DNA from: a virus
Reading direction: 5' to 3' (one strand)
Virus record (IMG/VR): IMGVR_UViG_3300034095_000847
DNA length: 64,000 bases
A program made the position numbers and the translations under genes. The notes beneath the pieces are model-generated. The model ran no database searches. It saw nothing but the letters and a program-made list of their open reading frames with translations, and was not told where the DNA came from. This document shows positions 4,694-24,505 of the stretch, piece by piece (position 1 is the stretch's first letter; each line of letters begins with the position of its first letter).

Positions 4694-4801
4694 TATGGAA
4701 ATTGAAAAAGTATTGAAAGGTGCATTCGTGTTATCAACTTTTATATGGTCTATGACGACTGTATTCTTATTGATATCAGTGTTATTTGGATTAGGAGTAT
4801 T

Positions 4802-5590
4802 ATGAAAATTGCTTATTGTTCTGATCTTCATTTAGAAATTAGAACCCTTGAAATTAACAATACAGAAGATGCTAAAGTGTTAGTATTGGCGGGTGATATC
4901 TGTACTGTTACAGACTTAGATCCATTAAACGATATTGGATACTTTAGAAGCCAGCGAATTCATAACTTCTTTAAAGATTGCTGTGATAAGTTCGAAAAAG
5001 TTATCTATATTATGGGTAACCACGAACATTATCACCATCAGTTCTACGATACAATAGGTAGATTAAAGACAAATCTAGGTTATCTACCTAATCTGCATAT
5101 CCTCGATAGAGAAGCAATTACTATCGATGGAACTACCTTTATCTGTGGAACTCTTTGGTCTGATATGAATAACGAAGACCCTGCTACTAAAGGATTTATG
5201 CTTATACGGATGAATGACTTTAGAATTATTAAGAATGGAATGGTACGATTTAGTCCAAATGATGCTATAGTTGAACATCAGAGAATGGTTAAGTTTATTG
5301 ATGATATAGTAGGTGAAGGAGATTATGTTGTAGTTAGTCATCATTCACCTAGTTTTAGAAGTGTTTCAAAGGAATTTGAGAAAGACAAATTAATGAATGG
5401 TGGATTTCATTCTAACCTTGATGAGTTTATTACCAATAGACCTCAGATTAAATTGTTTATTCACGGACATACACATTCTGCTCACGACTATATGATTGGT
5501 GAAACTAGAGTTGTTTGTAATCCAAGAGGATATGCTGGTTATGAAGCAATTGCTGATACTTTTGAAATAAAATATATTAATTTAATATAA
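4802..5590 (+). CDS. calcineurin-like metallophosphoesterase
   Basis: SDLH, LAGD, GNHE, SHH.P, HGHTH, CNPRGY motifs; start at MKIAY after AGGAG. Confidence 0.85.
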   Translation: MKIAYCSDLHLEIRTLEINNTEDAKVLVLAGDICTVTDLDPLNDIGYFRSQRIHNFFKDCCDKFEKVIYIMGNHEHYHHQFYDTIGRLKTNLGYLPNLHILDREAITIDGTTFICGTLWSDMNNEDPATKGFMLIRMNDFRIIKNGMVRFSPNDAIVEHQRMVKFIDDIVGEGDYVVVSHHSPSFRSVSKEFEKDKLMNGGFHSNLDEFITNRPQIKLFIHGHTHSAHDYMIGETRVVCNPRGYAGYEAIADTFEIKYINLI

Positions 5591-5846: not shown

Positions 5847-6110
5847 ATGAGAATGACAACTTGGCGTAAAGAAATAACAACAGTGATGATATCAAATGAA
5901 GATAAGGATATCACTAACTATGTAACTACATTAACCGAAGAAGAACTAGATGTTGAGTTTGATGCTGGTTATGGTGGGACTAGAGGATTACCATTCACTC
6001 TTTGGACTACTTGGTTCGTTTACTTCCCGATTGAATATGATGGTGCAGAGTGGGCAGGGTCAGTAGATAGGAATCCTACACAGAATCCAACATATCATCA
6101 AGGTGGTTAA
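5847..6110 (+). CDS. hypothetical phage protein (FDAGYGG..G.PFTLWT...VYFP.EYDGAEW)
   Basis: ORF track 5763..6110; start moved to the ATG after the upstream stop. Confidence 0.65.
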   Translation: MRMTTWRKEITTVMISNEDKDITNYVTTLTEEELDVEFDAGYGGTRGLPFTLWTTWFVYFPIEYDGAEWAGSVDRNPTQNPTYHQGG

Positions 6111-8565: not shown

Positions 8566-8861
8566 ATATCTATGAAGCCAGATGGAACAATGTCCTAAAA
8601 TGGGCAAAGAAAGTGAAGGAACACTACGACACTGGCAAGTATATGATTAAATGGGATTGGGATTATTATCCTAATGAATTTGACTTTGTTATTGATGAAG
8701 TGAACCGAATAATTTCAATTGATTCAAAAGATAGAACAACTCTAAATCAGATTTATGAATATGCTTTAGAATGGGATCATGGTTCATATACTTCTATTGC
8801 TGAAACAAACAAAATGCTTGCAGATATTAATTTATTTATGATGGTTAAGGTAAAATTATGA
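8562..8861 (+). CDS. hypothetical protein
   Basis: ATGA overlap with the upstream ORF. Confidence 0.65.
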   Translation: MNIYEARWNNVLKWAKKVKEHYDTGKYMIKWDWDYYPNEFDFVIDEVNRIISIDSKDRTTLNQIYEYALEWDHGSYTSIAETNKMLADINLFMMVKVKL

Positions 8862-9037
8862 ATAAAACTTATACAACTGAAGTCTATGAGTTTGGACCTG
8901 ATAATGATTTGATAATTAAACTTCCTGAAGAACTATTAGAAGAATTGAAATGGTTTGACGGTGATAAGATAACTTGGATAGACAATAACGATGGTTCATT
9001 CTCACTGAGGAAAGCAGATGATTTACTTAGATTATAA
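8858..9037 (+). CDS. AbrB/MazE/SpoVT-like small DNA-binding protein
   Basis: Read manually: DLIIKLPEELLEELKWFDGDKITW..NNDGSFSLRK. Confidence 0.6.
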   Translation: MNKTYTTEVYEFGPDNDLIIKLPEELLEELKWFDGDKITWIDNNDGSFSLRKADDLLRL

Positions 9038-9197
9038 GTGGGAATTATTTTCCTTTGGCATTATTCTTGATGAAGAACTTAATACTGATGAAATTGGATG
9101 GAAAGAAGGCGATTGTTTTAGATTAGAAAAAGTTAAAGGTGTATCAAAGTTAGTTAAATTTAATACCAATATTATAAGGATAGATAATGAAATATAG
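9018..9197 (+). CDS. small hypothetical protein, possibly AbrB-like (IGWKEGD)
   Basis: Read manually, 59 aa; GAGG RBS. Confidence 0.5.
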   Translation: MIYLDYKWELFSFGIILDEELNTDEIGWKEGDCFRLEKVKGVSKLVKFNTNIIRIDNEI

Positions 9198-9266
9198 AAA
9201 GAAACCAGTAGTAATTGAAGCGTTTCAAATTACAGAAGTAAAATGACCTATGAGGCAGTAGAATGA
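9187..9266 (+). pseudogene. internally deleted MKYRKKPVVIEA-family phage gene
   Basis: N-terminus MKYRKKPVVIEAFQ joined out of frame to the family-type C-terminus MTYEAVE*. Confidence 0.6.
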
Positions 9267-9664
9267 GTGATATAACAAAAAAAGATGGTCCAACAGGTGC
9301 ACCATATCCTGGTGAAGTAAATTATTGGTATGACAAGACTGAGGATATGAAAATGAATGAACAAGCAATAGGTATACAGAATCCAGGTTCTGAAACACAA
9401 TTAGTATTAGTAGAATGTATCCATCAATACCGTATGAGATATGTGGTTGAAGTTCCTGTAGGTAAATCAGATTGGGCACTTGATACAGTTTGTATGGATG
9501 AAGCCAAAGAGTTTTCTCAATTATCTCTTGGTGAAACTATTGTATCTCATAGAGTTATAAGTAAAGACGAAGTCCTAAAGTTATGTGATATTGATAATGA
9601 TTATTGCCATTCTTGGACTGATGAAGCGAAACTAGATGCATTTGTAACACCAATGGAGGAATAG
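9263..9664 (+). CDS. hypothetical T4-like phage protein
   Basis: YRMRYVVEVP.GK..WALDTV...AKEFSQ..LGETIVSHRV. Confidence 0.7.
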   Translation: MSDITKKDGPTGAPYPGEVNYWYDKTEDMKMNEQAIGIQNPGSETQLVLVECIHQYRMRYVVEVPVGKSDWALDTVCMDEAKEFSQLSLGETIVSHRVISKDEVLKLCDIDNDYCHSWTDEAKLDAFVTPMEE

Positions 9665-9665
9665 A

Positions 9666-10058
9666 ATGCAAAGATATAATCAAAGATTTAGTGGTGCGTT
9701 CGCACAACTGATTAAGTCTAATACTGGGAAATGGGTTAAACACGCAGAGTTTGAAGATATACTAAAAAGTAATGAAGACGCATTATTTGATGTTATCAAA
9801 GAACGTAATGCAGATATTGAAATGCATAAACAGTGTATTGAAGAACTTAATGTGTTAATTAGTAAAGTTAATAGATGGAGAGAGGAAGACCTTAAAGAAC
9901 ATCAAAGTGAATCTATGCAAAATTTTGAAGAACTTCAACGTCTAGGTGATGATTTGGAATATCTTAAAAATTGGAATACCAAACTGTTTTCGTTATTGGT
10001 AATTTCAACCGTTTTAAATTTTATTATGTTTGGTATTGCCGCGTTATATGTCGGGTAA
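9666..10058 (+). CDS. coiled-coil protein with C-terminal TM helix
   Basis: GGAGG RBS; heptad-rich middle; hydrophobic tail. Confidence 0.65.
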   Translation: MQRYNQRFSGAFAQLIKSNTGKWVKHAEFEDILKSNEDALFDVIKERNADIEMHKQCIEELNVLISKVNRWREEDLKEHQSESMQNFEELQRLGDDLEYLKNWNTKLFSLLVISTVLNFIMFGIAALYVG

Positions 10059-11050: not shown

Positions 11051-11554
11051 ATGATTAAAGCCATATATGTAGATATGGATGGTGTACTTGCAGATTTTAA
11101 GAAGAGATTTATAGAACGGTTCAAGGAAGAACCTGAACTAGATTATCCATCTAAAAATAAAGAGAAGAGTGCATATAAAGGAAGATTTGCTACTATGGTT
11201 GATGAACTACAATTTGCTATTCTTGATCCTATGCCTGATCTGGAAGAAGGTTTGCAGTTTTTAACTAGTATTGAGTTTGATTATGATATAAAGTTACTAA
11301 CATCAACTGCTAGAATTGAACTTAAGCAAACTATATCAAGTCAAAAAGAACAATGGTTAAAAGATTATGATATTAAATATCCTGCTATATATGTACCTGG
11401 AAAGATATTAAAGCAAACTTATGCTAGACCTTATAGACTATTGATTGATGATACACTTTCTAACGTAGATCAATGGCGAGCTAAGGGAGGTAAAGCAATA
11501 CTCCATACATCTTGGAGGCAAACAATAGAGGAGTTTGATTACTATTATGCATGA
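11051..11554 (+). CDS. HAD-superfamily 5'(3')-deoxyribonucleotidase-like protein
   Basis: YVDMDGVLADF motif I, LLTS, LLIDDT..NV.QW...GG..ILH. Confidence 0.85.
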   Translation: MIKAIYVDMDGVLADFKKRFIERFKEEPELDYPSKNKEKSAYKGRFATMVDELQFAILDPMPDLEEGLQFLTSIEFDYDIKLLTSTARIELKQTISSQKEQWLKDYDIKYPAIYVPGKILKQTYARPYRLLIDDTLSNVDQWRAKGGKAILHTSWRQTIEEFDYYYA

Positions 11555-12262: not shown

Positions 12263-12323
12263 AACGTTTACATTCTCAGAAAACATGATATAATAGACTC
12301 ATAAATTAAATTATGAGGTTGTT
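12258..12323 (+). promoter_or_regulatory. early promoter/leader cassette, copy 7
   Basis: GTTTAC 12266-12271, TATAAT 12289-12294. Confidence 0.9.
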
Positions 12324-14536: not shown

Positions 14537-15175
14537 ATGAAAATAGTAATCGGTAACTACAGGAATCATTGGCTGTCTCCCTACATAATCCTAGAGAAGT
14601 TTTTCTATTGGAGAAAGGACTATGATGTCTACAAGAAAGAGCCACCAAAATGGTTGCAAACTTTATGTGAATGGAACCAAAAGTTTCTAGATACAGTTCA
14701 TCCAAGAATTGAATATATAAAGATAGATCCTTGGGATACTTGGAGTATGGATCATACACTTGCTCCAATCATTCTCCCGATGCTAAAGGAATTACAGAAA
14801 TCTAAACACGGTTCTCCTTGTGTGTCTGATGAAGACGTTCCAGATTATCTTAAGTCAATGAATGCACCAAGATGTGAGAATGAATGGGATACTGATGATA
14901 ACTTCTTCAAACGCTGGGACTGGATATTACAAGAAGAAATATTTGCATTTGAATCTAAAATCGAAAATGATTGGATGGATCAGTTCAAGTCTGGTGTATC
15001 TGATGTCATTTGGGTAGAATCGGATGAAATGTATGAGGGCGATACTTGTATGGAAATGAAACACGGTCCCAGTCATACTCAAAAATATGACTGGGATGGA
15101 ATCAATGCATACGAAGCAAGAATTCAAAATGGATTTAGACTATTTGGGAAATATTATTCTTCACATTGGAGCTGA
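14537..15175 (+). CDS. hypothetical T4-like phage protein
   Basis: IDPWDTWSMDHTLAPIILPMLK...RWDWIL...RIQNGFRLFGKYY. Confidence 0.75.
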   Translation: MKIVIGNYRNHWLSPYIILEKFFYWRKDYDVYKKEPPKWLQTLCEWNQKFLDTVHPRIEYIKIDPWDTWSMDHTLAPIILPMLKELQKSKHGSPCVSDEDVPDYLKSMNAPRCENEWDTDDNFFKRWDWILQEEIFAFESKIENDWMDQFKSGVSDVIWVESDEMYEGDTCMEMKHGPSHTQKYDWDGINAYEARIQNGFRLFGKYYSSHWS

Positions 15176-15176
15176 T

Positions 15177-15350
15177 ATGAAATTTACAATATTGATGTTG
15201 ATAACTTGTCTTGTTGGTATAACCTTATGGTGTATCTTGGGATACACATTAGAAAAATATGGTGTATCTAATATGTGGTTTATGGTGGCAGGATTTTGGT
15301 TCTATCCTGTATACGACTTTATCTACAAAACTATTATGTGGCACACATGA
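15177..15350 (+). CDS. small membrane protein
   Basis: Start MKFTILM after GGAG; hydrophobic. Confidence 0.55.
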   Translation: MKFTILMLITCLVGITLWCILGYTLEKYGVSNMWFMVAGFWFYPVYDFIYKTIMWHT

Positions 15351-15562
15351 ATATGATAAATTATAGAGTAATTAGTGCTATGGCTGTAACTGGTGAAAAA
15401 TTTAGAGCAGAATATATAGATATGCATAGATTTAACAATTGGAAAGATATTTCAGATACAGACTGGTTTGTTTGGCATGATAGTATGGAAGATGCCAAAC
15501 AAGCAATAGTCAACCATAAAAGACAGTTGGAATATGTTCCAACAATAACTTATATAGATTAA
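15347..15562 (+). CDS. hypothetical protein
   Basis: ATGA overlap; ORF track 15275..15562. Confidence 0.55.
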   Translation: MNMINYRVISAMAVTGEKFRAEYIDMHRFNNWKDISDTDWFVWHDSMEDAKQAIVNHKRQLEYVPTITYID

Positions 15563-15752
15563 CGTATGAAAAAATTAAATCTGTTTATATTAAGAGTAGT
15601 TGTATGGGTGGCTTCAGTTGCCCTTTTTGTTATTGTTATTAGAGTTATCGAGGATATGCAATGAGGTTAGCATTAATCCTTTCAGTTTCACTGGTACTTT
15701 CAGTTGTTCTGGCTGTTGCAGTAATCGTAGAAACTGCTCTAACACAATTCTA

Positions 15753-16502
15753 ATGAAATCCAATTATAAATCCATCTTTATATCAGATGTTCATTTAGGA
15801 ACCAGAGATTGTAAAGCATCAGAACTGCATAATTTCCTTAAACATAATAAATGTGAAACACTTTATCTGGTTGGTGATATAATTGATGGGTGGCGTATAC
15901 AACAAAATAAATGGATGTGGAATCAAACACATTCTAATGTTGTTCAGAAGATACTTAAATTATCAAAAAGAAAAACAAAAGTAATCTATGTTGCTGGTAA
16001 TCACGATGAATTTCTAAGACCTCTTATGCCTTATGGTATTGGGTTTGGTGATATAGAAATTGTCAATCAAATTGAACATATTGGTGTAGACGGTAAAAGA
16101 TACCTAGTCATTCACGGTGATATATTTGATGGGATATCTACATTAGCACCTTGGTTAGGTTATGTTGGTGATAAAGGATATGATCTTATTCTTAACATAA
16201 ATAACAAGTTCAATTGGGTAAGACATAAGATGGGATTTGGATATTGGTCTCTTAGTGCTTATCTGAAACATAAAGTTAAATCAGCAGTAGATTTTATATT
16301 TGAATTTGAAATTAATCTAATAAATTATTGTAAGAAACGTGGATTTGATGGAATCATTTGTGGGCACATACATCACGCAGAAATAAAAGAGGTAGATGGA
16401 TTGATCTATATGAATGATGGGGATTGGGTAGAAAGTATGACTGCTTTGGTAGAACATCTAGATGGTACTTGGGAAATAATCACTTGGGACAAAATAATAT
16501 AG
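15753..16502 (+). CDS. plcP: PlcP-like (LpxH2-type) metallophosphoesterase, putative phospholipase C
   Basis: FISDVHLG, LVGDIIDGW, VVQKIL, GNHDEFLR, HGDIFD, YWSLS, CGHIHHA, NDGDWVES.TA.VEH.DG; has GNHD rather than the GNRD of E. coli LpxH; start at MKSNY. Confidence 0.75.
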   Translation: MKSNYKSIFISDVHLGTRDCKASELHNFLKHNKCETLYLVGDIIDGWRIQQNKWMWNQTHSNVVQKILKLSKRKTKVIYVAGNHDEFLRPLMPYGIGFGDIEIVNQIEHIGVDGKRYLVIHGDIFDGISTLAPWLGYVGDKGYDLILNINNKFNWVRHKMGFGYWSLSAYLKHKVKSAVDFIFEFEINLINYCKKRGFDGIICGHIHHAEIKEVDGLIYMNDGDWVESMTALVEHLDGTWEIITWDKII

Positions 16503-16511
16503 GATTAATTT

Positions 16512-16688
16512 ATGTATATTTTAGTAGCATTACAAGCAGTAGCAGCATTGGGTACTAGTCTTTTTTGGCAACCAATCGGTGAATTTACTTCACCAGAATT
16601 ATGCAAAGTTGCGGTAGAACAATTACAAAAATCAAAAGAACATAGAGATGGGGAGTTGTATGTCTGCTTGAAGAAAAGCAACTTATGA
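16512..16688 (+). CDS. small exported two-Cys protein (58 aa)
   Basis: Read manually; AGGA RBS; ATGA overlap into the GT4 gene. Confidence 0.6.
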   Translation: MYILVALQAVAALGTSLFWQPIGEFTSPELCKVAVEQLQKSKEHRDGELYVCLKKSNL

Positions 16689-17683
16689 AAAGAATCCTAA
16701 TAGTAACAGATAATCTTTTAGACCAAGTAAATGGTGTTGTTACAACTTTTACCAATGTAGAGAAACAAGCATTAAAGAATAACTACAAGATAAGTTATAT
16801 CGATCCTAGTATGTTCTTTCACTTCTCAGCATTAGGGTATCCTGAAGTTAAAATCAGCATACCTTTTAATGTTGGTAAAATAGTTGAAAAGATTAATCCA
16901 GATTATATTCATATTGCAACTGAAGGACCAATAGGTTGGGCAGTAAGAAGATATTGTAATAAGAAAGGTTACAATTATAATTCGTCATATCATACCAAAT
17001 TTCCAGATTTCCTCAAGGAAATCTACGGTATTCCTGAATCATTAACATATAAGTATGTTAGATGGTTTCATAAAGATTCTAAGAAAGTTTTAACAACCAC
17101 TCAAACAATGGTTGATGAGCTTAAATCTAATGGGTTTACTGCTGATGTTATCGCTTGGACTAGAGGTGTTGATACAGAAGTATTCAGTAATATCACTAGA
17201 GAAGACTCAAACCATTATACAATTCTATACGTTGGTCGGGTATCTAAAGAGAAAGGATTAGATGACCTATGTAAAATTAATTCTGATATATTAGATTTCA
17301 GAATACAGATAGTAGGTGATGGACCATACCGTAAAGAATTAGAAACTAAATATCCTCATGTAGAGTTTGTTGGGTATAAGAAAGGTAAAGAACTTGCTCA
17401 GTATTATAGAAATGCTGATGTATTATGTTTTCCAAGTAGAACAGATACCTTTGGTATTGTTATGATAGAATCAATGTCTATGGGTACGCCTGTTGCTGCA
17501 TATCCTGTTGCTGGACCAATTGATGTAATAGAACAAGGTGTTACTGGTTTTATGAATGAAGATATTGAAGATGCGATAGGTGCTTGTTTATATCTCGAAC
17601 GTGATGATGTAGAAAAACATTCAAAGAAATGGACTTGGGAAAACTGTTGGAAAATATTTAAAGACAACTTAGTGGAAAAATAG
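16685..17683 (+). CDS. GT4 (GT-B) glycosyltransferase, Agt-like glycolipid synthase
   Basis: ILIVTD...QVNGVV.T, YPEVK, PDYIHIATEGP.G, SYHTKFP, W.RGVD, YVGRVSKEK, FPSRTDTFGIVMIESM..GTPVAAYPV.GP.DV. Confidence 0.85.
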   Translation: MKRILIVTDNLLDQVNGVVTTFTNVEKQALKNNYKISYIDPSMFFHFSALGYPEVKISIPFNVGKIVEKINPDYIHIATEGPIGWAVRRYCNKKGYNYNSSYHTKFPDFLKEIYGIPESLTYKYVRWFHKDSKKVLTTTQTMVDELKSNGFTADVIAWTRGVDTEVFSNITREDSNHYTILYVGRVSKEKGLDDLCKINSDILDFRIQIVGDGPYRKELETKYPHVEFVGYKKGKELAQYYRNADVLCFPSRTDTFGIVMIESMSMGTPVAAYPVAGPIDVIEQGVTGFMNEDIEDAIGACLYLERDDVEKHSKKWTWENCWKIFKDNLVEK

Positions 17684-17692
17684 AAGTTTATA

Positions 17693-17700
17693 TATAAATA
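17693..17700 (+). promoter_or_regulatory. T4-type late promoter
   Basis: TATAAATA 33 nt upstream of 17734. Confidence 0.75.
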
Positions 17701-17733: not shown

Positions 17734-18579
17734 ATGACATTACCAGCTTCTGGTGCAATTTCATTATCTCAAGTAAATACTGAAATGAATGAAGGATTAA
17801 CAATTCAACGATCAATTAATGATATTTTTTTTACTACACTAACTGGTGGAACTAATTCTTGGGATGATTTACATGGTAAATCAAGAAGTCATGGAGCAAT
17901 TAATATTTCAAGTGGTATGGGTTCATGGACAGTACCTTTAGGTGTAATAAATGTATATGTTCATTGCCAAGGCGGACATGGAGGTAAAGGAGGAACTGAT
18001 GTATATGCTGGTCAAGTTGGTTGGGATGGCATGAGAGTATATGGTAATTTAGCAGTTTCATATGGCCAAGTATTTCATTTCTTTGTTGGTAATAATGGTA
18101 CAAATGGTACAAATGGTAGAAGTGGTACGCATGGAAAAGGTGGATCTTCTTCATCACCAACCGGTGTTAACTTTTCTGGTGGTAATGGTGGAGATGCAGG
18201 TACATATTATAAATCAAATTCTGGTGGAGGAGCTGGTGGTGGAGGAGCTTCAGGGGTTTATTTAGGAACTACACCAATCATTATTGCAGGCGGAGGCGGT
18301 GGTGGTGCAGGAGCAGGTCATGAAGGTGGTATAAAAGCTCAACAAGGAGGTATTATTACATCTACTATAGGTGGTACAGGATATGGAGGTACTAATGCTG
18401 ACTATGGTGGATGTGGTGGTGGCGGAGGCGGATTGAATGCCGGACAAGGTGGACAAGGTGCAGTACAAGATTATTTTGGTTGGCCGGGTACAAATGGTGG
18501 ATGTTTAGTTCCAGGAGGATTTACAAAAGATAATACTGGCCAAAATGATGCAAACCCTTATGTTTATTTAACTTGGTAG
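17734..18579 (+). CDS. glycine-rich virion protein, adhesin/tail-fibre-tip-like
   Basis: MTLPASGAISLSQVNTE N-terminus, many polyglycine runs, late promoter, AGGAG RBS. Confidence 0.6.
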   Translation: MTLPASGAISLSQVNTEMNEGLTIQRSINDIFFTTLTGGTNSWDDLHGKSRSHGAINISSGMGSWTVPLGVINVYVHCQGGHGGKGGTDVYAGQVGWDGMRVYGNLAVSYGQVFHFFVGNNGTNGTNGRSGTHGKGGSSSSPTGVNFSGGNGGDAGTYYKSNSGGGAGGGGASGVYLGTTPIIIAGGGGGGAGAGHEGGIKAQQGGIITSTIGGTGYGGTNADYGGCGGGGGGLNAGQGGQGAVQDYFGWPGTNGGCLVPGGFTKDNTGQNDANPYVYLTW

Positions 18580-18592
18580 GTGTAATAATGTC

Positions 18593-18724
18593 ATGAAAGC
18601 AATACCTCTAATTCTATTGGCAGCATTGTTATTCATATATATAAGCATGGAGATTTCAGCACAGTCTCCATGTTCTTCTTTTTCTTCAAATCCCTCCCTT
18701 TGTAACTCAGATAATCATCCTTAA
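18593..18724 (+). CDS. small signal-peptide-bearing protein (43 aa)
   Basis: Read manually: MKAIPLILLAALLFIY...C...C. Confidence 0.4.
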   Translation: MKAIPLILLAALLFIYISMEISAQSPCSSFSSNPSLCNSDNHP

Positions 18725-18775
18725 TAAATTGTTTACATTTCCTGAAAGTATGATATAATAGTATCATAAATAATT
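18724..18775 (+). promoter_or_regulatory. early promoter, copy 8 (diverged leader)
   Basis: GTTTAC 18731-18736, TGaTATAAT (-10 at 18754-18759). Confidence 0.85.
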
Positions 18776-19068: not shown

Positions 19069-19273
19069 AAGTAGCATTTTGAATGGTGGATTTTGTTCAG
19101 ATCTTGACCAGTTTATAGGAGATAGACCTAATATAAAAACTTGGATCCATGGTCATCTTCATAATAAATGTAATTATATGATAGGAAAATGCAATATCCT
19201 ATGTAATCCAAGAGGGTACATAGGATATGAAGAATGTGCTAATAATTTTAAATTAGAATATTTTGAAGTATAG
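19065..19273 (+). pseudogene. internally deleted metallophosphoesterase, paralogue of 4802..5590
   Basis: ATGAAAGTAGCATT (MKVAF, compare MKIAY) joined out of frame to NGGF.SDLD.FI..RP.IK.WIHGH.H...CNPRGY. Confidence 0.7.
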
Positions 19274-19592: not shown

Positions 19593-20087
19593 TTAATCAC
19601 AAAATATTTGTAAACTTTCCCTTACTGGGGCTAATAATGTAGGCATAACTGTTGCATGAAATATTGGTGGTGCAAAAGAAACTGCCTTATTATATTCTGG
19701 ATATATTGCTTTATAAGTTTCATCATTATCTTGGTATATTAATGCTCCGCCCCAATCTCTATCCCAATACTCATTAACATATAATGTTATTGCGTATTTA
19801 TGTCCTTGATCAGCATGCCATTGTATATAACTTAATCTTGAGCCTAATGTGAAGGCTATTGAAAATTTATAATCTTTTATTTCAGGAAAATGTTTTATTA
19901 ATTCATATTTTGTTTCTTCTAACAAATCATTTTTTAAATAATATAAAAGTATAACCCCACTTGTTCCTATTAAATGTGGATCCCAATCAGTTAAATTAGT
20001 TTTAAGATTATCACAAATACGAGGATAATTTTTAATTTTTTGTATTAAACTATCAGATAATACATCACGTGTTATTTTAACATTCAT
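19593..20087 (-). CDS. 2OG-Fe(II) oxygenase (prolyl-hydroxylase-like)
   Basis: WHAD (HxD), W..DWGG.L, P.YN.AV, H.T, R.SLQ.F. Confidence 0.8.
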   Translation of the reverse strand: MNVKITRDVLSDSLIQKIKNYPRICDNLKTNLTDWDPHLIGTSGVILLYYLKNDLLEETKYELIKHFPEIKDYKFSIAFTLGSRLSYIQWHADQGHKYAITLYVNEYWDRDWGGALIYQDNDETYKAIYPEYNKAVSFAPPIFHATVMPTLLAPVRESLQIFCD

Positions 20088-23731: not shown

Positions 23732-24505
23732 ATGGCGCGTAGACCAAAGATAGTAGATACTCATTTTGAAGATATTTCGAAATACCAACAACCTACTAAC
23801 GATAAAGTTATACAAGGAGTACAGTCAAATAGATTAAAAATGCGTATTGAAGATCTAAAGACCTTCAAACCTCTTACTAAAAATCAAGAATTATTCTTTG
23901 ATTCTTATAAAGTAGGTGAATATTTTATGATGTTATCCGGCTCAGCCGGTACGGGTAAATCATTTATTGCATTATATAAAGCACTTGAAGAATGCATGGA
24001 CAAAAGTAACTCTTTTAATAGAGTATTAATTGTTCGTTCGGCAGTACAAACTAGAGATGTAGGATTCTTAAAAGGTAGTTTGGATGAAAAGACATCTATC
24101 TATGAAGATCCTTATATTCAAATCAGTTCAACTTTATTCGGAAGAGCCGATGCATATCAAAGATTAAAAGAACAAGGTTATATTGAATTCACTACCACAA
24201 CCGCTATCCGTGGCATGAGTTTTGATAATTCTATTGTTATATTAGATGAGATGCAAAATTGTACTTTTCAAGAGTTAGATACTATTTTGACTAGAATTGG
24301 ACATCAATCAAAGATAATCTTTGTCGGTGATTTAAGTCAAAATGATTTATTGAAGAAATCTTCAGAAGTGACAGGTTTGCCTCAATTCTTAAAAATCGCT
24401 GAGACTATGGATGAATTTTGTCGTATTCATTTTACTTCCGCTGATATTGTTAGATCATCTTTGGTAAAATCATATATTATAGCAAAGGAAAATTTAGGTT
24501 ACTAA
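23732..24505 (+). CDS. phoH: PhoH-like ATPase
   Basis: P.T.NQ, GSAGTGKS Walker A, VRSAV...GFL.G, RG.SFDN...LDE.QN, TRIG..SK....GD..Q.D, DIVRS. Confidence 0.9.
   Translation: MARRPKIVDTHFEDISKYQQPTNDKVIQGVQSNRLKMRIEDLKTFKPLTKNQELFFDSYKVGEYFMMLSGSAGTGKSFIALYKALEECMDKSNSFNRVLIVRSAVQTRDVGFLKGSLDEKTSIYEDPYIQISSTLFGRADAYQRLKEQGYIEFTTTTAIRGMSFDNSIVILDEMQNCTFQELDTILTRIGHQSKIIFVGDLSQNDLLKKSSEVTGLPQFLKIAETMDEFCRIHFTSADIVRSSLVKSYIIAKENLGY

Follow-up and report, generated by a model that had tools for sequence, protein, structure and literature searches.

The stretch of viral DNA analysed here (IMG/VR record IMGVR_UViG_3300034095_000847; 64,000 nt, hereafter the window) holds at positions 15566-17683 a module of five tightly packed open reading frames (ORFs) on the plus strand, two of which encode a PlcP-type metallophosphoesterase and, starting 183 nt past its stop codon, a family 4 glycosyltransferase (GT4) of the Agt/GTcp clade (Table 1). 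We consider it probable that the two genes form a phage plcP-agt lipid-renovation operon, which would free the phosphorus of host lipids without breaking up the membrane. The five ORFs and all motifs quoted in a first-pass annotation of this DNA, which had proposed such a pair, were recovered at their positions. Its assumption of a viral source also proved correct: the window encodes T4-type baseplate hub, wedge and tube-cap proteins as well as gp32, gp59 and PhoH, and it belongs to an uncultured aquatic T4-like myophage.

Family placement of the two enzymes

The phosphoesterase matches the Pfam profile Metallophos (E 2.7e-11) and displays the motifs SDVHLG (15783), GDIIDGW (15873), GNHDEF (15996), YWSLS (16242), CGHIHH (16359) and GDWVES (16419). 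The full metal-binding set (DxH, GD, GNH[D/E], H and GHxH) is occupied by D12/H14, D42, N83/H84, H121 and H205/H207, all of which are invariant in a 28-sequence alignment. We place the start of the gene at the ATG at 15753 because the relatives start at the same Met; an ORF that opens with TTG at 15600 only extends it upstream. The relatives differ only in their C-terminal tails.

An alignment with characterised PlcPs revealed similarity over the full length of the protein, with 53% identity to the orthologue of Pseudomonas aeruginosa PA3219 (238 aa, E 2e-92) and 47% identity to the orthologue of Sinorhizobium meliloti SMc00171, the founding PlcP (243 aa, E 5e-84). Both anchor sequences were taken from PLSDB 'plasmid' records that look like pieces of chromosomes or whole chromosomes. 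In the P. aeruginosa record the homologue is followed by a glycosyltransferase gene and then by cyaB, an order which we take to be that of PA3219-PA3218-PA3217, and in the S. meliloti record it adjoins sinR/sinI and is presumably SMc00171. Two PLSDB entries (NZ_CP042268.1 and CP090106.1) are mislabelled; one is a 3.7-Mb S. meliloti record named pSymB, while another, from P. aeruginosa, includes the cyaB region. SMc00171 and the PlcP of the window have their motifs in common throughout, including a helical insert. In S. meliloti, PlcP feeds betaine-lipid synthesis and, unlike in the window, no agt adjoins the gene. Experiments with mutants support the anchors: P. aeruginosa plcP mutants lose monoglucosyldiacylglycerol (MGDG) under phosphate stress (PMC8528852), and a SAR11 PlcP complements a Phaeobacter plcP mutant and restores lipid remodelling (PMC4796936).

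The competing assignment is LpxH, a name that relatives of the phosphoesterase bear in Joint Genome Institute (JGI) and GenBank records; in GenBank it is given to the PlcP homologues of Pelagibacter phage Mosig and of S-SRM01. BLAST against Escherichia coli LpxH aligned only the N-terminal half, with 23% identity over 124 aa. Likewise, the two NCBIfam LpxH equivalog profiles cover the N-terminal half only and score 48.1 bits (NF003743, cut-off 134) and 35.7 bits (TIGR01854, cut-off 190), and in a sequence search of the PDB, LpxH was matched only at E ~0.005. Clustering with LpxH, which the first-pass annotation had seen as the outcome that would speak against PlcP, was not found in a quick maximum-likelihood tree (45 rows, short search) whose support values are those of the Shimodaira-Hasegawa-like approximate likelihood ratio test (SH-aLRT) only. 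The three LpxH sequences were split by a long branch from all 42 PlcP-family rows (SH-aLRT 100), the PA3219 and SMc00171 sequences nested among the PlcP-family rows that bracket the viral clade, and the PlcP of the window fell within that clade (SH-aLRT 98). Moreover, genomes that encode a true LpxH can hold a separate PlcP-like paralogue, as seen in Photobacterium (LpxH at 341 bits) and in a gamma-proteobacterial genome (262 bits), where the paralogue scores ~41 bits.

The fold does not separate the two families. An AlphaFold2 model of the phosphoesterase (predicted local distance difference test, pLDDT, 82) found LpxH structures as all of its 24 best PDB matches, at TM-scores of 0.53-0.63 and 16-21% identity. 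Judging from the model, the metallophosphoesterase core and its metal motifs, together with the helical cap that binds lipid, are common to PlcP and LpxH, whereas orthology is not. Taking profile scores, alignments and phylogeny together, we assign the phosphoesterase to PlcP and not to LpxH, in agreement with the original call of a PlcP-type enzyme. A metal-dependent phospholipase C activity that yields diacylglycerol (DAG) is accordingly a prediction for the phage protein.

The glycosyltransferase matches Glyco_transf_4 in its N-terminal half and Glycos_transf_1 and Glyco_trans_1_4 in its C-terminal half (E 2e-27 to 1.8e-13), and carries VTD (16703), QVNGVV (16724), HIATEGP (16910), SYHT (16985) and FPSRTDTFG (17429). 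It aligns over its full length with PA3218 (Agt1; 38% identity, 332 aa, E 6e-89), and all NCBIfam GT4 equivalogs stay far under their cut-offs (best 66.6 bits vs 480). Purified Agt1 converts DAG and UDP-glucose into MGDG (PMC8528852). The GTcp clade, which is less than 25% identical to other GT4 members, is marked by a His104-Asp256 dyad, in which Asp stands where a Glu is usual in GT4 enzymes, and by the motifs GRVAxEKN and FPSxTDTFG; its DAG pocket comprises His104, Thr162, Arg163 and Trp320, and 14 residues abolish activity when mutated (PMC8231724). Each of these 14 has a counterpart in the GT4 of the window, in matching order and spacing: G17, G81, G84, H103, T159, R160, R185, K190, D254, T255, F256, G257, E262 and W318. 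The catalytic dyad thus reads H103/D254, and the UDP-sugar motifs read GRVSKEKG, which ends in G and not N, and FPSRTDTFG. The DAG-pocket residues H103, T159, R160 and W318 are kept in 43-46 of the 46 operon-linked glycosyltransferases (GTs) in the alignment. On this residue pattern and the full-length alignment with Agt1, the earlier Agt-type call can be kept and the enzyme placed in the Agt/GTcp clade, and transfer of glucose or glucuronic acid from a UDP-sugar to DAG is predicted for it.

Recurrence of the pair in phages and bacteria

A scan of IMG/VR returned 378 contigs with a PlcP relative. We retrieved 80 of these loci, whose PlcPs are 71-98% identical to that of the window; two end just past PlcP, which leaves 78 untruncated loci. 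In 70 of the 78 a glycosyltransferase gene lies directly 3' of plcP; it encodes an Agt-like GT4 at 27 loci and an enzyme resembling GT2/GT21 at 43. Elsewhere this place is taken by ribonucleotide reductase (four loci) or another gene (three). In the reverse survey, starting from GT4, PlcP was found directly 5' in 20 of the 21 loci with enough upstream DNA. The co-occurrence of PlcP and GT4 in viral contigs, which had been put forward as a check, is therefore real from both sides (27 of the 80 retrieved loci from the PlcP side), and the pairing is beyond chance.

The GT2-type partner is 236-239 aa long and matches Glycos_transf_2 and, in two of three proteins tested, also Glyco_transf_21 above threshold. 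This enzyme may represent a further type of lipid glycosyltransferase in phages. For bacterial plcP, Sebastian et al. described two partner types (PMC4796936), and since GT21 is a family of processive diacylglycerol glycosyltransferases (PMC8231724), phages show both of them. In two loci (L088, ~8760-9700; L090, ~1650-2950) an ORF of ~290 aa stands between PlcP and GT4, which by eye resembles an ATP-grasp protein (RimK-like).

Verified T4-like or very large phages are among the carriers. Baseplate-wedge matches were found in three of five large carrier contigs checked; one contig is a complete genome of 179.8 kb with terminal repeats, another measures 289 kb. Contigs of 300-500 kb, either cellular or from very large phages, encode proteins 72-77% identical to the PlcP of the window, and two short 'bacterial' contigs from metagenome-assembled genomes, with proteins 70-74% identical, are suspected to be misbinned phage DNA. 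Among 401 evenly sampled alphaproteobacterial genomes, 144 have a PlcP homologue, none of which exceeds 57% identity to the phage clade. Therefore, it is reasonable to regard the phage genes as an old separate lineage and not as genes taken up recently from the bacteria sampled. One of the genomes, G252, is unpublished, and no claim is built on it. Both genes are under strong purifying selection, with ratios of nonsynonymous to synonymous substitution rates (dN/dS) of 0.06-0.07 for PlcP and 0.10 for GT4.

The pairing with GT4 occurs in alphaproteobacterial operons, too. Known bacterial PlcP-Agt operons are P. aeruginosa PA3219/PA3218 (PMC8528852), PB7211_983/PB7211_960 of SAR11 strain HTCC7211 (PMC4796936, PMC8231724) and Burkholderia cenocepacia BCAL2364/2365 (PMC13691135). 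The phage module agrees with them in its two enzyme families and in gene order, plcP before agt, and retains all metal motifs and GTcp residues. It differs in being carried by a T4-like phage, in having no Pho box that we could find and an apparent early-type phage promoter instead, and in that its PlcP belongs to a clade of its own. Whereas a 4-nt overlap is usual between plcP and agt in bacteria, a 58-aa ORF separates them in the window, and two small transmembrane (TM) ORFs are translationally coupled upstream.

Expression, proposed role and alternatives

A conserved promoter of early type, TTTACA, 16 nt, TG-TATAAT (TTTACATT, spacer, TG-TATAAT), is present in ten copies in the window against 0.15 expected. 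Its copies map the early transcription units of the phage. After the copy at 12267, the nearest one 5' of the module, no further plus-strand copy occurs until 18732. Going by these consensus matches, the module is likely to be expressed early, via host sigma-70, in every infection, as the first-pass annotation had expected when it assigned the genes to the early programme. Just 3' of the agt stop codon lies a sequence resembling a T4-type late promoter, TATAAATA. As it is not enriched in the window (12 found vs 21 expected), it serves only as a positional hint to where the module ends on its 3' side.

We picture the module as a phage copy of the bacterial operon in the 'type 2' layout of Sebastian et al. 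PlcP, a peripheral metal-dependent phosphodiesterase with the LpxH fold, would remove the phospho-head group from host glycerophospholipids, with DAG staying behind in the membrane. The Agt-clade GT4 would then glycosylate this DAG with glucose or glucuronic acid, drawn from a UDP-sugar of the host, giving a phosphorus-free glycolipid whose replacement of the lost lipid would keep the membrane intact. The lipid phosphorus would be released as soluble phospho-head groups and, after dephosphorylation, could feed phage nucleotide synthesis. Because an early-type promoter heads the unit and no Pho box accompanies it, this would take place early in every infection, whatever the PhoB response of the host. 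Phosphate-stress genes such as pstS and phoH, the latter also present in the window, likewise concern the host phosphate economy in T4-like marine phages. They act on uptake or have an unassigned role, whereas PlcP-Agt would tap an internal store, the host membrane.

Several points weigh against this scenario. Neither a proteobacterial-type nor a cyanobacterial-type Pho box was detected in or near 12-18 kb of the window, in line with the first-pass annotation, so that the direct link to phosphate stress which marks the bacterial operon is absent at the phage module. It is important to note that the Pho box, typical of many bacterial plcP operons, is a regulatory trait and not part of the enzyme itself. 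PlcP yields phospho-head groups and not free phosphate, and a further phosphatase is needed. With at most 57% identity between the phage clade and the sampled bacteria, the substrate range of the phage PlcPs could have drifted. The PA3219 and SMc00171 anchors are orthologues from other strains, assigned by synteny and locus numbering, and the match to all 14 GTcp residues was mapped by spacing and by alignment with PA3218 and other operon-linked GTs. For the phage copies, finally, we infer the enzyme activities, their timing, the remodelling of host lipids in infection and the phosphorus benefit from sequence.

Among the alternatives, the one that survives best keeps the lipid chemistry and changes its benefit: the phage would profit from altered envelope properties (a superinfection block, receptor display or membrane stability until lysis), with the phosphorus gain as a side effect. 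We regard this main rival as unlikely. Expression from an early-type unit with no Pho box would be untied from phosphate stress, glycosyltransferases of pelagimyophages have been read as surface modifiers against co-infection (PMC7029224), and lipid remodelling in bacteria alters susceptibility to antibiotics and grazers (PMC8528852, PMC9457565). On the other hand, the PlcP homologue of Mosig adjoins the phosphate-uptake gene pstS, and the predicted glycolipids are inner-membrane or bulk lipids and not surface polysaccharide; sequence alone cannot separate an envelope benefit from phosphorus supply. Considerably less probable is that PlcP degrades host phospholipid for lysis, DAG or fatty acids while GT4 acts on another acceptor. 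PlcPs with no adjoining GT would fit such a role; they occur in Mosig and, with ribonucleotide reductase or another gene 3', in seven of the 78 untruncated loci from IMG/VR. However, the next gene in 70 of the 78 encodes a GT of a lipid-GT family, GT4 almost never occurs without PlcP, and placement in an early unit speaks against lysis. That the phosphoesterase is LpxH (UDP-2,3-diacylglucosamine diphosphatase) and the GT4 a modifier of lipopolysaccharide (LPS), so that the pair alters lipid A/LPS, is hardly credible: database names, the counting of 'lpxH' as an LPS gene in virome surveys and nearest solved folds (TM-score ~0.6) favour it, but the sub-cut-off LpxH scores, the fully supported split, the separate paralogues, the 47-53% full-length identity to proven PlcPs and the retained DAG pocket of GT4 all contradict it.

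The lipid-renovation reading can be confronted with a cultured phage. In Pelagibacter phage Mosig (4900-6735) a PlcP homologue 51% identical to that of the window stands back to back with pstS, and there is no GT. The host, HTCC1062, has been reported to lack plcP (PMC4796936) but to have an Agt homologue (PMC8231724), which suggests that Mosig may supply the one missing enzyme and so complete a pathway that HTCC1062 cannot run alone. Phage and host offer a direct laboratory test system. The intergenic region of Mosig (5848-5997), read by eye, contains octamers of the TTAACA type, among them a pair spaced by 11 nt (at 5922 and 5933), that resemble a Pho box of the cyanobacterial type.

Phage production is phosphorus-limited across much of the ocean and in many lakes, and the known phage phosphate genes act on uptake; a phage PlcP-Agt pair would add host phospholipids as an internal phosphorus source. 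We see about an even chance that membrane phosphorus mining, by PlcP with a GT4 or a GT2/GT21-type partner, is a widespread and unrecognised strategy of large aquatic myophages that is independent of the host Pho regulon. We searched the literature for PlcP in connection with phages, viruses or auxiliary metabolic genes and, in a coverage that left out most subscription journals, met no description of a phage-borne PlcP. If the strategy is real, some of what is counted as 'plcP' and 'lpxH' in aquatic metagenomes and viromes would be viral. The viral 'lpxH' tallied under LPS synthesis in virome surveys is probably, at least in part, mislabelled PlcP, and phage copies may be among the plcP genes counted in metagenomes to gauge phosphorus stress in bacteria. 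Lipid remodelling alters the grazing and antibiotic sensitivity of bacteria, and the same shift could affect the fate of infected cells.

Small ORFs, neighbouring genes and carrier phage

The first-pass annotation had listed three small ORFs with the enzyme genes, and they fared unequally. TM peptide 1 recurs with 78-100% identity in three related contigs (L037-L039), and a related, more distant peptide lies directly 5' of PlcP in a further one (L042); its dN/dS is 0.11-0.13. Profile searches gave no family match for it, and it is missing 5' of PlcP in the majority of the other phage loci. Only the near-identical contig L037 shares TM peptide 2 and the 58-aa ORF, and both are doubtful as genes. 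L038 and L039 have different small Cys-containing ORFs at their positions, and in most other phages a short gap or overlap between PlcP and GT replaces the 58-aa ORF. A jackhmmer search from the latter found just two weak relatives elsewhere and established no family. None of the three is typical of most phage modules; they are lineage-specific at best, and we leave them out of the system. In L038 (2205-2381 and 3115-3308) and at the equivalent sites of L039, paralogous ORFs of ~57 aa flank PlcP on both sides. They have a hydrophobic N-terminus, two conserved Cys and a C-K-K end, and the 58-aa ORF of the window is loosely alike, with no family established. A terminator-like hairpin within TM peptide 1 (15606-15623) is not conserved in L038 or L039 and was taken as chance.

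Table 1. Positions of the module, of its putative expression signals and of other genes (window coordinates unless a locus is named)
Feature	Position	Strand	Basis or remark
TM peptide 1, 32 aa, hydrophobic	15566-15664	+	ORF; overlaps next ORF by ATGA
TM peptide 2, 30 aa, hydrophobic, doubtful gene	15661-15753	+	ORF; stop overlaps PlcP start (TAATG)
PlcP-type phospholipase C, metallophosphoesterase, 249 aa, LpxH-like fold	15753-16502	+	Pfam, BLAST, tree; 9-nt gap to 58-aa ORF
58-aa ORF, hydrophobic N-terminus, two Cys; doubtful system member	16512-16688	+	ORF; overlaps GT4 by ATGA
Agt/GTcp-clade GT4, 332 aa, predicted diacylglycerol glycosyltransferase	16685-17683	+	Pfam, BLAST, residues
Early-type promoter copies	2185, 2574, 4348, 5594, 7550, 10094, 12267, 18732, 25994	+	Exact pattern
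Early-type promoter copy	12448	-	Exact pattern
Nearest early-type promoter 5' of module	12267-12294	+	Probably starts the unit holding the module (inferred transcription)
Terminator-like hairpin with T tail	18644-18674	+	Consensus match only; directly 5' of promoter at 18732; likely end of early unit
T4-type late-promoter-like TATAAATA	17693-17700	+	5' of Gly-rich ORF 17734-18579
GT2-type transferase examples 3' of PlcP	L061:8740-9453, L040:7804-8520, L098:8768-9487		IMG/VR loci
PhoH	23732-24505	+	Window
Second Metallophos protein, 281 aa, unrelated to PlcP	4745-5590	+	Window
NT5C-type 5'-nucleotidase	11051-11554	+	Window
2OG-Fe(II) oxygenase	19593-20087	-	Window

The ORFs adjoining the module (14537-15175, 15275-15562 and 17734-18579) gave no match in Pfam. 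The last of these, a glycine-rich ORF of 281 aa on the plus strand, may encode a structural or fibre-associated protein. Another plus-strand ORF, of 64 aa (19079-19273), likewise had no Pfam match; by eye, its HGH-x-H-like motif resembles the C-terminal end of a metallophosphoesterase, and it may be a gene remnant.

The G+C content of the window is ~31%. The nearest relatives of its gp6-like wedge protein are those of the Pelagibacter phages Mosig and HTVC008M and of the Methylophilales phage Melnitz (~40% identity). The nearest genome, G001 (3.2 Mb, 280 contigs), shares 27% of the words of the window but is no clue to the host, as its own PlcP is just 45-46% identical to that of the window. 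A gene for a 2OG-Fe(II) oxygenase, as found in the window, is also the next gene after the PlcP homologue of Mosig.

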